A stretch of DNA of 64,000 nucleotides from Planctomycetota bacterium (GTDB taxonomy: Bacteria > Planctomycetota > SZUA-567 > H5-PLA8): NCBI GenBank assembly GCA_038227875.1, contig JBBRPR010000017.1, positions 32,001-96,000 on the forward strand, given 5' to 3'. Position 1 is the stretch's first letter; each line of letters opens with the position of its first letter. Position numbers: made by a program. Positions 15,001 through 21,000 of this stretch are shown here, piece by piece.

Positions 15001-18000
15001 TCTCAGTCAGTCCGCGCACCAGGCGGCCAATCTGTTCGTCCAGCGCTGTGACATGAGCGTAGTAGCCGCGCAACTCGTCCCGGTTGGGATTCGGGCAATT
15101 GGGTCGCACCGGCACGTCGGGCGGGTACAGGTCGAGAAATTCCTTGGGCACCTGATCGTAGGGATTGTGTGGCGGACCCCAGGACAGAAACAGCGCAAAA
15201 GGATCCGCGCCGCTTCGCTTTAAAAAGTCCAGAGCAACATCGGTCTGCGCGCGCGCGTCGTAGCCGTTCCAATGTTTCTTTTCAGTGGAGTCGCCGGAAT
15301 AGTAATGCGACTGCATGTAATTGTGATCGCAGTTGGCGACGGCCCAGAAATCGAATCCCTGGCGCCGCGGTCCGGGCGGCGTATAGGCCGAACGTTCATT
15401 GCCATCCAAATGCCATTTGCCAATGTAGCCGGTGCGGTATCCCGCTTCTTTCAATACGGTGCCGAATGTGGGGCGATCTGTTGGCAGGCGCAAATCGTTG
15501 ATGAACAACCCGTGCCGCAGCGGGTATTGGCCAGTCAGCATGCTCGCACGCCAGGGCGTGCAGACCGGCATGCCCGAAATGCAGTTCACGAATTCCAGTC
15601 CTTCGGCCGCGAGCTTGTCCAAGTTCGGTGAAATCACCGCGCGATTGCCGGAGTATCCCGTGGCTTCCGCGCGCATTTGATCGGCAAAAACAAAGACCAG
15701 ATTGTATTCGGGTCGACTCATCGTGGGCACCTTTCAACAGTAAACGGCAGTCACGCTCTAATCACTCCACGCGTTGCGCGCAAGTCGCAGTTCCGCGTTC
15801 TTAAAGAACGTTTCACGGAAAATTTGACAGTTTGCTGTTCGTGAGGTTGAATGCCCTGGTCCGAATGGAGATCAACATGCTACGCGCGTTTTACGGCTAC
15901 GGATATCGATTCAACTCCCCCGTGGCGTAGCGCGACTGTTTTGAATTTAGGCGAGCCATGGGTATGATCATCCCATGGCTTTTTTGTTGGCGTAAATAAA
16001 GGGGCCATGGGATGCGCGGAAGCGTCTCATGGCCTTTTTAATTGAACGGAGGATGCAATGCTGGGCGATGTCGTTCAGGAATTACGGTGGCGCGGGTTGT
16101 TGCAGCAGATGACCGACGAGACGCTCGAGAAGCGTCTGCTCCAGAATCCATTTACGCTCTACGCCGGTTTCGACCCGACGGCCGACAGCCTCGCGGCGCA
16201 TCACATGATTCCGCTGCTCAATCTCGCCCGCTTCCAGCGCGCCGGGCACAAGCCCATCGCGGTGGTCGGCGGCGGCACGGGGTTCATCGGCGATCCGTCG
16301 GGCAAAACTGAAGAGCGCCAGTTGCTCACCGCGGAGCAGCTTGAGGCCAACGTCGCCGGTCAGCGCAAGCAGATGGAGCGCTTCCTGGATTTCACGCCCG
16401 GTACGGCGCAGGCCTCCGTGCTGAACAACGCCGATTGGCTCTGCGGCATGAACCTGATCACGTACCTGCGCGACGTCGGCAAGCATTTCACGGTCAACTC
16501 GATGCTGGAGAAAGATTCCGTCCGCCGGCGCCTGGAAGATCGCGCACAGGGCATCAGCTACACGGAATTCAGCTACATGCTGCTGCAGGCGTACGATTTT
16601 TATCACCTCTTCAAGCACCACGGGTGCCGGCTGCAGATTGGCGGCAGCGATCAATTCGGCAACATCACCGCCGGCTGCGAATTGATCCGCCGCCGTCGTC
16701 CCGAAACCGAGGCGCATGAGACGTGGGGCGCATACGGTTTGACCACGACCCTGATTACCGATTCCAACGGCGAGAAAATCGGCAAGACCACGAAAGGCGC
16801 GCTGTGGCTGGATCCGAACAAGACGACGCCGTTCGATTTCTACCAGTACTGGATCAACACCAGCGACGCCGACGCCATCAAGTACGTCCGTTACTTCACC
16901 GACGTGAACGAAGCCGACGCGCAAGCCGGCGAGGCCGATCACGCCAAGGACCCGGGCAAGCGTTTGCTGCAGAAGAAGCTCGCCCGCTTCATGACGGAGC
17001 TGGTTCACGGCGTGACGGAACGGGAGAACGCACAGAAGATGACCGACGATCTTTTTACCAAGTCGGTAAAAGACCTCGACGAAGCTGCGCTCTTGAACCT
17101 TGTGAAAGATGCTTCGAGTTCGACACTCTCGCGATCGCGGTTGGAAGGCGAAGGGATGCCAATTATCGAGTTGCTTGCAGAAGCTACCAAACTGTGGGCA
17201 TCAAAGGGCGAGGCGAAGAAGTCGATTCAAGGCAACGGAGCGAATCTCAACGACGTTCGAGTGACTGATCTTCAGAAAAAAGTGACGACGGCTGAGCTGC
17301 TCCATGGCAAGTACTTGGTGCTGCGGAAGGGGAAGAAAGACAATCATCTGGTGAAGGTGGAATGAACGATTAGCTGGTCATATCAAGCCGACGGGACTTC
17401 GTCGGGAGCGACGCCAATCACGGCTCCCGACGAAGTTTAAAATAATTCATAATCTTCCGTCACATTTCGATCCCACTGCATCTTGAGTCTGAGTGAATGA
17501 GAGAGGTGTGGAGGAAAAATGTCGCTCAACGAATGGCTGGAGTCGGCTCGCGGCGGAAATCTCGACGCCTTTGAACGGCTCATGGATGCGACGCAAGGCA
17601 TGGTCTATGCCGTCGTGCGCCGCATTCTGATCGACCGTGAAGACGCGGCGGATGCCGTTCAGGAGACCTACGTCCGGGCGTTTGGAAAGCTGTCGGAGAT
17701 TCGGAATCCAGACTCCTTTCCGGGATGGCTCAGGCGTATCGCGGTGACGACTGCGATGGGTCTCCAGCGTTCTCGCCGTAACCACTTTGTTGAGTTCGAC
17801 GACGATCTGCACATTCCCATTCTGGACGATCAGGAAACACGCTGGAGCGAATTTCAGCACGCGGCGATGGCAGAAGCCATCGTCAAGCTCGGCGAGAGCG
17901 ACCGGCTGCTGTGTGAACGCTTTTATCACGGCGGCTGGCCCCTGGCGCGACTGGCGGAAGATCTGGAAATTTCGGAAAGCGCCGTGCGCAAACGCCTCCA

Positions 18001-21000
18001 GCGCATCCGCGAACACTTGCGAAAGGATATTGAAATGAACGAACAACGAACACTGGCCGGCGAACACCTGCCAGGAAATCTGCCGCGGAAAGTGATTGAG
18101 CTGCTGGCCCGTCCCCGGCTCACCACCATTCCGGAAAATCCGGTGGGCCGCATCTGGCATCTAATCCAATCGCACCTGCCCAAGTCCGTGGACATGGACG
18201 TTTCGGAAACGGTGACCGACGAGCAAGTGCGGGAGATGCTCGGCGACTTATATGACGCCGGTTCTGACATCGGAGGGGGGCAGGGCATTCATCGCGTCGA
18301 CGACGCGCAACACCTCCGCGCCGAAATCACGCTGCCGTTGCTGCTGGCGTGCCGCGGGCGCAGCGGGCCTCAGTCGATCGTGAGCGCTGGGAAAGTCTAC
18401 CGGATTGCGAAAGTCGGACCCGCTCACATGGAATCCTTTCATCAAGGCGAATGGCTGAACGTTAGCGAGTCGGCCTCGCTCTGGGACTCGATGGGCCTGA
18501 TCAGCGGAATGATCAAGGGGCTCTATCCCGACAAGGCGATCCGCTGGGAGAAAGTTCAGCTTCCTCTGTGCGAGGAAGCGTGGGAACTCTTTGTGGACTG
18601 GAACGGCAAGTACGTCGCGGTGCTGGGGTGCGGCCGCTACAAGGATCGGATCGTGGAGTACCTCGGCAACGATCCCCGTCGATTTACCGCTATCGGCGCG
18701 GGCTTCGGTTTGGAGCGCATGGCCTGCGCTCACTTCGGGATCGATGACATTCGCAAGGTGGAGGGAATCCGGCTGAGTTGAAGCACGAACTTGGGGATCG
18801 TGAAATGCGGTCCCCAGGTTCGACTCTCATCCCGCCAACTTCGTGCGAAATTCCTTCGGCGTGTAGAACTGGTGCGACTTCTCGTCGAGCAGCGTGGCAC
18901 CAAACTGCTCAAATATCTGCACGTACAGCCGGTAAAAAATGCGCTGTTCCGCGCCGCTGCGGGCGTTGATGGTGATGACTTCGCCGGGCTTCGGCGGTCC
19001 TTGCTCGAGATGCACTTTCAGGACCACGCCGCCTTCGACTTCCCAGAGCAGTTTGACGTTGCTGTCGGTGGCCGCCTGATCCCATGGCGCAGCCGGGATT
19101 TTGGTCATGTGCGGAACTTCCATCAGCTTCTCGGTAACGGAGTTCAGTGAGCCGAGCGAATGAAGTTCGATGGGCAGAATGGTGGTGTCTTTGGGTGGTA
19201 TGGGATCGGGTTTCCAGAACGAAAACTGCGCGATCTCTGAATTGTGACTGGAATGATTGTCTGACACGAGAAGCCTCCTTCGCCCGCCAAGTCCGCTCCC
19301 CCTCCAAAGCCCTCACGCAACACGTACCCTATCCCTAAGCAAAATATACACCATAGTTATCGACGTGGATGCAGACCAAGTGGGCAGAATTGGACAATAA
19401 AATGAGGCACGTGTGCAACGGCCGGACGGATGGCATCGGGGATCAGGTAACAGGCATCGGTTAATGGGCGTGCTTACCGTGTCGATCTATTTTATTGCGA
19501 GTTGAGGACGTCCATCAAATCTTGAAGAGTGCCTTCAACTCGCAGCAGCATTGGATTCAACAGCCGTGCACGCCCATTAACCGATGCCCGAGGCCCGATG
19601 CCCGACCCCCGATCCCATCTGTTCTGTTCGTTCTAGTACTCCACCTGCGCCACTCCGTAGAGCTTCGGCGTGCTGACACTAAAGGTCAGCGTTCCATTGC
19701 GGACGGCGCTCTTGATCTCCTTAGCGACCGGATGATCCTGATGCGGGTCGGTGAGGGTGACGCGCGCTTTTTTGCAGCCAGCGGGAAGTGCGACGGTGGC
19801 CGTCATCCGCGGTTTGACGTTCGCGGCGTTGTAGTTGATGAAATGCAGATCGACACCGCGGCTGGCACGGATGGCTTCGACGAAGACATGGTCGTTGCCG
19901 GTGACGTGGTGTGACAGCGGCTGTTCGCCGGCAGCATCGGCGATGGCTTTCAGGAAAACCTTCCGGTTCTTCACCGGCGCCAGCGCTTCGCCGCTGATCG
20001 CAAACCAATCGGAGATATTCCAGGCGGTGAGCACGTCCCAGGTCGGGACGTAGACGAGGCAACCGTTCCCCACCGGAGACTTCACGTACTTATCCGAGGG
20101 CTCTTTCATCCACTTGCCCAGTCCGCGCGACCATTCGCGCGGGCGATACCACTCGTTAAATTGCACGGCCTTGCCGGAGACAATCACGCCACCGCCGGCG
20201 CGCATAAATGCATCCAGCGCGTCGATCCACGCGTCGGGGATCGCTTGAATTTCGGGCAGCGCGACGATGCGGTACTTCGACAACTGATCGATCTGCTTGT
20301 TGAAGATGATGCCCCACGGCAGCTTCTCGACGGCCAGCGTCTGCTCGAAGGCGATCAGTTGTTCGTGAACCTTGGCGCAATTGTAATTCGTCGACGGTTC
20401 GCTGCGGAAGACGGCGATGTCGTGAAGGTGTTCGCGTTCGTGGTAGAGCGCCTGGTTGGCGCGCAGAAACTGCGTGACCGGCGTGAACGCCATGCAGTCG
20501 CCAATGCCGCCGATCCAGCCGTGGCCTTCGATCTTCTTGCGGTAACCGTAGACCTGGCTTTCGACAGCAGCCATCTCGTCGTGCGGTTCGTCCACGACGC
20601 CAATATGCGTGACGTGCGACGACTTCCACAACCGCACTTCGCTGACGACCTGCCCGCCTTTGACGCCGGGGCTGTAGCCGTCGATGCAGGTGAAATCGAG
20701 AATGTCGGTGAACGCGCCGTGGCAGATGCCGTTGTCGAAGGCGCGGTTGTTACCGTGAATGCCCTTGATGTTCATGCCCACGGCCGTCGTCGGCGACTGC
20801 TTCTTCACGTAGTTGGCCATCTCCGCGTAGAATTCCACCACGGACGTGATGCGGTGATCGATCCAATCCTGCATTTGCGGCAGGACAATCCGGTCCATGC
20901 GCCAGGGTTTGTTGGCCTGGCTCCAGACGGGAGGCATCACGTCCGGATGCTCCGCGAAGCCGTAGCGAATGAGGCATTGTTCGGGCGTGTACTTCGCGCG

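Follow-up and report, generated by a model that had tools for sequence, protein, structure and literature searches.

An ECF sigma factor fused to a catalytic core of the PheRS alpha type and preceded by its own conserved promoter

Some ECF groups carry an extension fused to the sigma factor and have no anti-sigma factor; ligand-driven conformational switching has been proposed for them (PMC8999054, sections 3.5-3.5.1 and Table 2). In ECF41, known from SigJ of M. tuberculosis and Ecf41 of B. licheniformis and R. sphaeroides, a C-terminal domain is fused to the ECF core. The ECF41 promoter is TGTCACA-n16-CGTC and its regulon a single transcript (Wecke et al. 2012, PMC3426412). ECF288 and ECF238 (CorE of M. 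xanthus) have a fused sensory extension, and for ECF288 a -35 element TGTCACA and a -10 element TGTCTAAT are printed in Text S2 of Casas-Pastor 2021. The gene described here shares with these three groups the ECF core, the fused C-terminal domain and the lack of an anti-sigma factor.

The gene lies in a 64,000-nucleotide stretch of a Planctomycetota genome (the window; Table 1). An earlier note on this DNA had read it as an ECF sigma factor and a PheRS-alpha core in one polypeptide, and on this the reading frame, Pfam, NCBIfam, PDB and Foldseek agree. The frame is open from its ATG, with stops on the opposite strand. Upstream lies tyrS (16058-17365), set apart from the promoter of the fusion gene by the hairpin between them. 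This hairpin folds at -29.5 kcal/mol (z -4.84), none of 200 shuffles folds equally well, and a simple terminator scan overlooks it because its loop has 13 nt. No tyrS counterpart occurs in any of 80 related loci, and the neighbourhood is indeed not conserved, as had been claimed. PF01409 matches twice in the genome, in the fusion gene and in a canonical pheS (351 aa, contig C23) directly followed by pheT, the ordinary pair that the earlier note had placed elsewhere.

Table 1. Features of the fusion gene and its upstream region (positions in the window).
Feature	Position	Strand	Remarks
Terminator-like hairpin 3' of tyrS	17394..17438	+	16-bp stem, then UUUAAAAUAAUU
-35 element GTCACA	17459..17464	+	PWM scan; same hexamer before 79/81 family genes
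-10-like element ATCTTG	17480..17485	+	Family consensus (T)GTCYT; spacer 15 nt here
Shine-Dalgarno GGAGG	17510..17514	+	4 nt 5' of ATG, read from sequence
Whole fusion gene	17519..18781	+	420 aa, ECF sigma factor and PheRS-alpha-like core
Sigma region 2 (residues 22-80)	17582..17758	+	Pfam PF04542 Sigma70_r2, 1.5e-10
Sigma2-sigma4 linker (residues 88-110)	17780..17848	+	D103, E106, W109 family-invariant
Sigma region 4 (residues 129-169)	17903..18025	+	Pfam PF04545 and PF08281; invariant columns
Junction and motif-1 region, fusion-specific (residues 194-210)	18098..18148	+	Invariant columns
PheRS-alpha-type class II catalytic core (residues ~195-420)	18101..18778	+	Without N-terminal tRNA-binding arm
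Class II motif 2 (residues 291-311)	18389..18451	+	G291, Y294, R295, F307, H308, Q309, E311
Pocket strand (residues 348-356)	18560..18586	+	L-P-L-C-E-E-A-W-E; canonical PheS F-P-F-T-E-P-S-A-E
Class II motif 3 (residues 391-402)	18689..18724	+	G393, G397, L398, E399, R400, A402

The sigma factor half (residues 1-175) comprises sigma2 and sigma4 and scores 81.7 bits with NCBIfam sigma70-ECF TIGR02937 (cut-off 42.9). In region 4, Pfam Sigma70_r4_2 matches residues 135-167 (1.8e-5), and K158, R159, R162 and R164 are invariant in the alignment. The three linker residues are invariant in 42/42 sequences. They and the invariant junction (195-210) are candidate contact sites.

The C-terminal domain of 226 residues descends from the catalytic module of PheRS alpha. 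Pfam tRNA-synt_2d covers residues 267-414 (7.3e-21, profile 84-235 of 246), and PheRS alpha chains lead the PDB sequence search (6p8t_C, 3.3e-15; E. coli 3pco_A, 6.8e-14, query 266-413 on chain 166-314). The AlphaFold2 model, built on a 42-row alignment (pLDDT 82.8, with 88-97 in the C-terminal blocks), resembles the PheRS alpha chains 6p8t_D (Foldseek TM on target 0.79, rmsd 2.1 Å over 212 columns), 4p71_C (0.77) and 3pco_A (0.76). How the two halves are placed relative to each other is not predicted with confidence: pTM is 0.58, and pLDDT falls under 50 at residues 88-107 (sigma2-sigma4 linker) and 177-186 (junction). The domain is identical to PheS of the same genome at 54/226 positions (24%), and the fusion protein, at 76 bits, stays far under the 237-bit cut-off of the NCBIfam pheS equivalog. 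At the junction and in the motif-1 region, L195, L196, P199, L201, P205 and G210 are invariant in the alignment; the class II motif-1 proline P208, found in 120/121 sequences, aligns with P109 of the genome's own PheS, NP standing where canonical PheS has HP. In the tree, the true PheS sequences all group in a single clade (100/99) that includes none of the fusion domains. A near-canonical sister subfamily grades into the derived subfamily of the window protein; neither this sister subfamily nor the conserved promoter presented below appeared in the earlier note.

That the fusion is no local accident, as previously held, is borne out by 916 homologues at E<=1e-5 among 8000 proteins scored. All 120 matches listed are 415-435 aa long, show 42-50% identity and contain PF01409 as well as PF04542, and more distant matches of 412-428 aa combine sigma region 2 with PF01409 in 16/16 cases. 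When the C-terminal domain alone is the query, its full-length matches prove to be fusions or else fragments, most of which begin within sigma4. Both halves are thus selected as one protein. By record titles, the family occurs in six phyla and in soil and sediment lineages; its spread is patchy, with the gene in 2/401 genomes of its own phylum, and one singleton bears an added GNAT domain. We found no description of the family in the literature searched. The earlier proposal of a new ECF class is upheld in part: the data support a type of ECF sigma factor that is distinct and widespread, has its C-terminal domain built in and shows no partner gene, but they do not fully support phenylalanine binding.

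As judged from residue conservation, the domain retains the part of the class II site that serves ATP and the backbone of an alpha-amino acid. All ATP and alpha-amino contact residues are invariant in the alignment of 121 members. R295, F307, Q309, E311 and R400 each occur in 121/121 sequences, the first four aligning with E. coli R195, F206, Q208 and E210. In motif 3, G397, L398, R400 and A402 are likewise universal, and E399 is found in 120/121; apart from E399, the residues of motifs 2 and 3 that the earlier note had named are invariant (121/121). At least 95% conservation is seen at 41/226 domain positions, including R295, F307, H308, Q309, E311, G372, G397, E399 and R400; 21 of these 41 equal the genome's canonical PheS, against 36/183 other positions. 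Position 303 in the motif 2 loop is His in 106 and Arg in 15 of the 121 sequences.

The side-chain pocket is different. At the positions by which bacterial PheRS recognises the phenyl ring (roles from PMC3275996), the family differs: position 348 (Tt Phe258) is Tyr in 100 and Phe in 18 of 121 sequences (Leu in the window protein), position 350 (Tt Phe260) is Met in 99 and Leu in 11, and C351, at the E. coli T251 position, is Cys in 120/121. Position 393 (E. coli A294) is Gly in 108, including the window protein, and Ser in 13, which makes 121/121 for these two residues. Trp355 is specific to the family and universal there (121/121). The pocket has been remodelled, with conserved replacements, and has not simply decayed. 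The window copy itself is atypical, with non-consensus residues at positions 348, 367, 300, 302 and 268. The earlier view of phenylalanine as a ligand probably still bound therefore stands for the ATP and alpha-amino contacts but not for the ring pocket, which is replaced, nor for the acidic residue of motif 2, which is lost (C66/G36 of 121). Since the replacement is itself conserved, the ligand may not be phenylalanine; in this subfamily a different amino acid, probably an aromatic one, or an analogue may take its place.

A family promoter, GTCACA-N16-(T)GTCYT, precedes 79/81 genes (57/57 and 22/24 in two sets), with a spacer of 16 nt in 78 of the 79. The window promoter is the weakest of the family (PWM score about 12.1-12.2, its -35 part giving 14.5; training median 27.4). 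At a PWM score of at least 14, both strands of 1.02 Mb from 80 loci yield 78 own sites and 5 others, the best of these at 16.4. With the same private promoter before each relative, the gene looks like a self-contained switch. Further targets did not emerge: in five acidobacterial genomes the strict motif gives 9 hits (5 own promoters and 4 more) against 9 for the reversed-pattern control and, with one mismatch permitted, 269 against 287, and the top motif hits in the window's own genome lie mostly within ORFs. No conserved +1 ORF follows the fusion gene, no anti-sigma gene was found, and pheT linkage is absent from the window and the 80 loci. No neighbour cluster is common to more than 18/81 loci, the commonest being a very paralogous FtsX/MacB permease. 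PADLOC gave no hit.

We consider it about an even chance that the protein works as an autoregulated, one-component ECF sigma factor, with the synthetase-derived extension as its sensor of an amino acid together with ATP, or of the adenylate. Sigma2 and sigma4 would bring RNA polymerase to the family promoter in front of the fusion gene itself. The C-terminal domain, which has shed the tRNA-binding arm and the context of partnership with pheT, would stand in for the anti-sigma factor that is missing. Its ligand would be an amino acid, probably aromatic and not necessarily Phe, bound with ATP, or else an aminoacyl-adenylate, and its liganded state would set sigma activity, in one direction or the other, in the manner of ECF41 and ECF238 with their fused extensions. 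The fusion may in this way tie transcription to amino acid and ATP. A sensor without an output regulon is an incomplete explanation.

We hold possible though unlikely a reading in which the domain is a trigger enzyme, with a logic like that of BirA: it makes an aminoacyl-adenylate, and the adenylate or its use by an acceptor gates sigma. The protein would then be both sensor and output, because its sole detectable target is its own gene. Invariance of all class II adenylation residues tested, the His303 pattern, the single promoter detected and the solitary, patchy occurrence of the gene are consistent with this; yet we know of no acceptor for the adenylate, motif 2 lacks its acidic residue and the form with an extra GNAT domain is a singleton. 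Moreover, bacterial PheRS alpha by itself charges no tRNA (PMC3275996). The synthetase fold might instead be a fused anti-sigma-like or stabilising scaffold with no small-molecule ligand, as the altered pocket and the score far under the pheS cut-off could suggest. We find this improbable: R295, F307, Q309, E311, G397, E399 and R400 persist in 120-121 of 121 sequences from six phyla, as they would not in a scaffold, and the conserved positions are the richer in true-PheS identity.

Somewhat more doubtful again is a tether to the PheRS complex, in which the motif-1 face pairs with PheT or another class II core and the state or stoichiometry of PheRS holds or frees sigma. No stretch of the domain is better conserved than the motif-1 region, with its class II proline, and the alpha core of PheRS is functional only with beta (PMC3275996). 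However, pheT linkage is missing, and the flanks of motif 1 differ from PheS (ENPVG vs xRHPL). In GCN2, a HisRS-like domain serves as a sensor of uncharged tRNA. The synthetase origin of the domain and the largely retained T/M-H of the motif 2 loop would fit a comparable role here, which is nevertheless quite improbable: the tRNA-Phe-binding N-terminal arm of alpha and the whole beta subunit are missing (PMC3275996), and tRNA binding would not need the strict upkeep of amino-acid and ATP contacts. Least probable of all, and pure inference, is a self-amplifying sponge or sensor for a mimic of the aminoacyl-adenylate, such as a natural synthetase inhibitor. Its analogue would be TipA, which is autoregulated. 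A regulon seemingly limited to the gene, the soil and sediment lineages and a pocket rebuilt around a retained adenylate site speak for it; against it, no such inhibitor is known and PADLOC gave no hit.

Among known systems, ECF41 is close to the one-component sensor that we favour. By its descriptions (PMC3426412; PMC8999054), it has the same -35 element as the fusion family, a spacer of about 16 nt, a similarly tiny, local regulon and a conserved sigma2-sigma4 linker motif, there a proposed contact site. It differs in having a SnoaL-like extension of about 100-120 aa, where the fusion family has a 226-aa class II synthetase core, a CGTC -10 element instead of (T)GTCYT, and a neighbouring COE gene as target, whereas for the fusion family only the own promoter was found. 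Among the printed promoters consulted, that of ECF288 matches the family promoter most closely. ECF288 and ECF238 extensions are short, Cys-rich, metal-binding tails rather than an enzyme fold, and the taxa differ, ECF288 occurring in Firmicutes.

PheS itself (E. coli 3pco, A. baumannii 6p8t, T. thermophilus 1pys) matches the domain in fold (TM 0.75-0.79, rmsd 2.1-2.7 Å, about 212-219 columns) and in motifs 2 and 3, with their FHQxE and GxGxER elements. Unlike PheS, the fusion domain has no coiled-coil tRNA arm and no adjacent pheT, and its phenyl-ring pocket is replaced. BirA, the biotin ligase and repressor, joins a DNA-targeting module to a class II synthetase-like adenylate-forming domain in one polypeptide; its ligand is biotin, and the adenylate that it binds acts as the signal for regulation. 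It is a winged-helix repressor and not a sigma factor, with the domain order reversed in function, and we treat it as an analogue, claiming no homology beyond the fold class. The NCBIfam model NF051887, 'PheS-related mystery ligase SrmL', matches residues 283-413 (1.4e-16), but its 60.6 bits against a cut-off of 300 exclude the fusion protein from SrmL, a name for which the literature searched held no paper, only unrelated uses of the letters. In an Atlas search, the nearest to the domain are clusters of bacterial PF01409 proteins of 213-264 aa. SrmL and these short stand-alone proteins are without a sigma domain, unlike the fusion, and like its C-terminal half they are PheS-like cores that have diverged and stand apart from the translation apparatus.

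The protein of 17519-18781 joins an ECF sigma factor and the class II catalytic core of a phenylalanyl-tRNA synthetase alpha subunit (PheS) in one polypeptide, and lacks the tRNA-binding arm of PheS. This had been claimed in an earlier note on this DNA, whose factual points were all reproduced with small numerical differences only. The opposite strand is interrupted by stops. According to Pfam, the sigma part is made up of regions 2 and 4 only, ends near residue 175 and is devoid of regions 1.1 and 3, as expected of an ECF (group 4) factor. It passes the curated ECF model TIGR02937 (81.7 bits for a cut-off of 42.9) and scores 92.7 bits with the subgroup model TIGR02989, under the cut-off of 124.55. 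With the pheS equivalog model TIGR00468, the protein obtains 76.0 bits against a cut-off of 237.45, and it is therefore not a PheS in the sense of that model. The coiled-coil arm (PF02912) has no Pfam match in the fusion protein, the N-terminus being filled by the sigma domains. By sequence, the C-terminal half has its closest matches of known structure in bacterial PheRS alpha chains (6p8t_C, 3.3e-15; E. coli 3pco_A, 6.8e-14), and the N-terminal half in ECF sigma factors (SigL, 7e-9).

The AlphaFold2 model built from a 42-row alignment (pLDDT 82.8, pTM 0.58) is very confident in the C-terminal domain and poor at the sigma2-sigma4 linker (88-107) and at the junction (177-186). PheRS alpha chains also top the Foldseek comparison (6p8t_D, TM 0.79, rmsd 2.1 A over 212 columns; 4p71_C, 0.77; 3pco_A, 0.76). 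Predicted docking of residues 1-190 on residues 195-420, run without controls, gave ipSAE values of 0.00 and 0.01, which we weigh neither as support for an interaction nor as a sign of its absence. The genome (9.34 Mb, 176 contigs) holds exactly two PF01409 matches, namely the fusion gene and a canonical pheS followed by pheT on contig C23, which is the ordinary pair that the note had reported; no pheT adjoins the fusion gene. In the canonical PheS itself, a Cys-rich insertion follows the pocket strand of the catalytic core and precedes the next one; with its several CxxC-like pairs, it looks like a zinc ribbon.

Features of the window, of the fusion protein and of the genome's canonical pheS, with the residues of the ligand site compared across 121 family members
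Feature	Position	Strand	Description
Second ECF sigma factor gene	12243-14381	-	712 aa, two genes from the fusion; sigma2 and sigma4 at residues 77-227
-35 element	17459-17464		GTCACA
-10-like element	17480-17485		ATCTTG
Fusion gene	17519-18781	+	Open ORF, ATG start, 420 aa; GGAGG four bases before the ATG
Convergent ORF	18827-19267	-	146 aa, GTG start, strong AAGGAGG ahead
Long ORF	21942-25904	+	1320 aa; weak TPR match only, otherwise unexplained
Canonical pheS (contig C23)	L001:1498-2553	-	351 aa
Sigma-70 region 2	residues 22-80		Pfam, 1.5e-10
Sigma-70 region 4	residues 129-169		Pfam
PheRS class II core (PF01409)	residues 267-414		Pfam, 7.3e-21
Motif 2 acidic residue	residue 297		Ala; not kept in family (Cys 66, Gly 36)
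T. thermophilus Phe258 position	residue 348		Leu; family Tyr 100, Phe 18
T. thermophilus Phe260 position	residue 350		Leu; family Met 99, Leu 11
E. coli T251 (T. thermophilus V261) position	residue 351		Cys; family Cys 120
Ala four residues after E. coli T251	residue 355		Trp; family Trp 121
E. coli A294 (T. thermophilus A314) position	residue 393		Gly; family Gly 108, Ser 13

The ligand site was examined by mapping the domain on E. coli PheS through a HMMER alignment to 3pco_A and on the genome's own PheS through a 122-row MAFFT alignment. Class II motifs 2 and 3 of PheS (Arg, FHQxE, GxGxER) are kept across the family, as the note had stated: R295, F307, Q309, E311, G397 and R400 are found in all 121 members, E399 is found in 120, and H308 and G372 also belong to the residues kept in 120 or 121. 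We take R295 and R400 to play the roles of the motif 2 and motif 3 arginines, F307 to be the Phe that stacks on the adenine, and Q309 and E311 to hold the alpha-amino group. The phenylalanine pocket is another matter. Its residues in PheS, Phe258, Phe260, Val261 and Ala314 of T. thermophilus, correspond to F248, F250, T251 and A294 of E. coli (PMC3275996, excerpted text), and the family has Y/F, M/L, C and G/S instead, with L348, L350, C351 and G393 in the window protein. In E. coli, A294G and T251G widen the pocket for para-substituted phenylalanines (same excerpt). The note's proposal that the domain probably still binds Phe and ATP is supported in part: the contacts for ATP and the alpha-amino group are kept, whereas the residues around the phenyl ring have been replaced, in a conserved way. 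Across the 226 positions of the domain, 41 show a conservation of at least 95%; identity with the own PheS reaches 21 of these 41 positions vs. 36 of 183 others. Judged from the alignment, such a pattern suits a domain that would still bind an amino-acid backbone and ATP while reading another side chain, and not a decaying relic.

Within the family, the branch of the window protein is rather long (0.71 in a tree of 52 cores). It has L348 where 118 of the 121 members have an aromatic residue, A367 where 101 have Glu and G300 where 106 have Asp. Because the ORF is intact and its nearest relatives have the same x-P-L-C pocket strand, we read this copy as a diverged member of the family and not as a pseudogene.

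The existence of many two-domain relatives of about 419 residues, also put forward in the note, is borne out by a word-indexed protein search, in which 916 of the 8000 proteins scored reached E<=1e-5. The 120 matches listed are all 415-435 aa long, align to 97-100% of the query at 42-50% identity and contain both Pfam domains; where their sources name them, they are called sigma factors, with the exception of one protein (P0087) termed PheRS alpha chain. With one genome taken per species, 136 stretches with a relative were found and 80 were kept. By record titles, these comprise 54 Acidobacteriota, 9 Myxococcota, 6 Proteobacteria, 5 Latescibacterota, 4 Planctomycetota and 2 Gemmatimonadota, and the cultured Paludibaculum fermentans (L040) is one of the 80; a further fusion (P0161) comes from Candidatus Poribacteria. 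The spread is wide but patchy, since only 2 of the 401 searched genomes of the own phylum, the window's genome counted, carry the fusion; it was found in none of the 8 genomes of the same family (four candidates per genome scored in both cases).

When the C-terminal domain alone was compared with 1.84 billion representatives, 668 matches reached E<=1e-3, and 23 of them also reached E<=1e-30. Those covering the full domain are either fusions, about 413-427 aa long, or pieces of 226-276 aa. These pieces, considered as stand-alone copies of the domain, were set aside: most of them start inside sigma4 and probably result from truncated gene calls. Matches to true PheS do not begin before about 1e-14 and cover the domain only in part. 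The sigma part has only 7 short stand-alone matches, the best non-fragment being 34% identical. All 16 of the more distant matches of 412-428 aa are again sigma-PheS fusions, several of which retain GHP and GRVFR, have a pocket close to the canonical one and reach Pfam scores as good as 2.7e-51. In a maximum likelihood tree of the 52 catalytic cores, true PheS (bacterial, long-N-terminus and mitochondrial-type) is split from all fusion domains with branch support 100/99. The window's subfamily forms a clade (100/99), and the near-canonical fusions form a grade between it and true PheS. If the root lies among true PheS, the topology agrees with one event in which a sigma factor acquired a PheS core that was then remodelled stepwise. 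A metagenome scan for near-canonical fusion loci returned canonical PheS and plain ECF genes, the sole fusion (L105) being of subfamily 1. Another metagenome protein (P0226, 596 aa) bears an additional C-terminal GNAT domain (PF13508, 3.6e-6); a second fusion of this kind was searched for and not found. In the feature space of the ESM Atlas, the nearest neighbours of the domain are short stand-alone bacterial PF01409 proteins (213-264 aa) of Myxococcota, Thermodesulfobacteriota and Actinomycetota, auto-named 'pyrrolysine-tRNA ligase large subunit family', which may be further non-translational PheS/PylS-like cores.

A conserved promoter, absent from the earlier note, precedes the gene. The motif GTCAC-N-(spacer)-[GA]TC[CT]T is found in 57 of 57 usable upstream regions, with a spacer of 16 nt in 56 of them and of 15 nt in the window. 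It is also present at 22 of the other 24 loci, the remaining two having one-mismatch forms, which brings the total to 79 of 81 genes; one metagenome member has it as well. With the positions left free by the search pattern, the consensus reads GTCACacTt-N-gTGTCtTt. Over the 1.02 Mb of the 80 loci, both strands included, PWM scores of at least 14 are reached at 78 own-promoter sites and at only 5 other places (best 16.4). The window's site is the weakest promoter of the set (12.1 vs. a training median of 27.4). A terminator-like hairpin (16 bp, -29.5 kcal/mol, z -4.84) separates tyrS from this promoter, and the fusion gene is therefore its own transcription unit. The conservation of the motif at nearly all genes gives indirect support to the idea that the protein would bind the RNA polymerase core and initiate at this bipartite promoter.

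Searches for further targets had no such outcome. In five acidobacterial carrier genomes, the strict motif gave 9 matches (5 own promoters and 4 others) vs. 9 for the reversed-pattern control, and allowing one mismatch gave 269 vs. 287, that is, no excess. In the own genome, the better-scoring PWM sites lie mostly within ORFs, no regulon was found and no site precedes pheS; the few intergenic sites, ahead of a secreted repeat protein, a GntR regulator and an ABC binding protein, concern unrelated genes and were not retained. Within the window, no site beyond the own promoter has a comparable score, the one weak site at 19248(-) being inside an ORF.

No neighbour is conserved across the family loci, and same-strand ORFs downstream are heterogeneous; so there is no anti-sigma gene, co-transcribed partner or adjacent target. 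The window's neighbours have no counterpart in the 80 related loci, and the linkage with tyrS, unique to this genome among them and with the hairpin between the two genes, was discarded. The commonest neighbour, a duplicated FtsX/MacB-type permease of 800-1030 aa on either side and strand (L012, L017, L021, L028, L035, L036, L039, L046, L052, L053, L060, L078), lies within 750 bp of the fusion gene at 12 of 62 loci; its orientation varies, and it has no promoter site of the family type. It was rejected as a part of the system; its proximity may be due to chance, because Acidobacteriota have so many such paralogues. A DNA ligase at +1, present at 6 loci of one subclade, was rejected as well. 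PADLOC gave no matches. Around the fusion gene, the convergent 146-aa ORF matches neither a Pfam nor a PADLOC family and lacks a homologue in the 80 loci, and the second ECF sigma factor has about 480 residues without a Pfam match after its sigma domains, another long unexplained C-terminal extension.

The best-supported reading, to which we give an even chance, is that of a one-component, autoregulated ECF sigma factor. Its synthetase-derived extension would stand in for an anti-sigma factor as a built-in sensor, responding to an amino acid together with ATP or to the aminoacyl-adenylate, and the gene would be autoregulated from its private promoter. Candidate contact sites are D103, E106 and W109, invariant in the linker between sigma2 and sigma4, and the junction at 195-210, likewise invariant. 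The model without confident interdomain packing and the regulon search without output count against a one-component sensor. The main rival supposes a domain that has stayed enzymatically active and whose adenylate serves as the signal, as biotinyl-AMP does in BirA, the protein being perhaps its own output; this would fit a single-gene, self-promoted and horizontally scattered module. That the domain makes and holds an aromatic aminoacyl-adenylate which switches the sigma factor, by analogy with BirA, seems improbable to us. If true, the fusion, which has its own promoter, moves as a single gene between phyla and has no other detected target, would be a portable, self-amplifying module, sensor and output at once, that weighs amino-acid and ATP supply against an acceptor or soaks up an adenylate-like compound.

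Other alternatives rank lower. The domain could be an inert scaffold, a proposal that the conservation of the ATP and alpha-amino residues speaks against, or it could hold the protein to PheT or the PheRS complex by its conserved motif-1 face. It could also sense uncharged tRNA, or the fusion could act as a sponge for adenylate-like inhibitors. In the preferred reading of a built-in sensor, a synthetase catalytic core used as a sigma extension would be a new sensory principle: transcription initiation would depend directly on an amino acid with ATP, or on an aminoacyl-adenylate. It would also be a synthetase paralogue of a new kind, working outside translation. The system lends itself unusually well to testing, with a single gene, a known promoter, no partner protein and a cultured, non-pathogenic carrier, P. 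fermentans. Synthetic biology could also use it as a compact switch, given its orthogonal promoter and the ligand domain built into the protein.

Among sigma factors, the counterparts of 'one-component systems' are the ECF factors with fused extensions, and the extensions described so far are SnoaL-like, TPR, WD40-like, Cys-rich or anti-sigma-like. We file the fusion with the ECF sigma factors that bear a regulatory extension. Full-text literature searches found no description of a sigma-synthetase fusion, and none of the 26 extension-bearing groups in the excerpted text of a 2022 review has a synthetase domain (PMC8999054). In the ECF reclassification (PMC7826278), the main text has 0 occurrences of tRNA, synthetase or phenylalan; the text of its supplement, through the last group ECF295, mentions tRNA synthetases 6 times, always as neighbours, and a numbered group may still exist in its tables. 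The logic proposed here is that proposed for ECF41 and ECF238 in the same excerpt of PMC8999054. ECF41 and ECF288 have fused C-terminal extensions and no anti-sigma factor. ECF41 has a SnoaL-like extension and a neighbouring COE target gene (carboxymuconolactone decarboxylase, oxidoreductase or epimerase), and neither was found here: SnoaL has no Pfam match in the fusion protein, whose extension is PF01409, and no COE cluster occurs among the ORFs of the 81 loci. The -35 element of the family is the same as in ECF288 (TGTCACA / TGTCTAAT; Text S2 of PMC7826278, in part) and in ECF41 (TGTCACA-n16-CGTC; PMC3426412, excerpted text). With ECF41 the spacer agrees too, and the difference lies in the -10 element, CGTC in ECF41 and (T)GTCYT in the fusion family.
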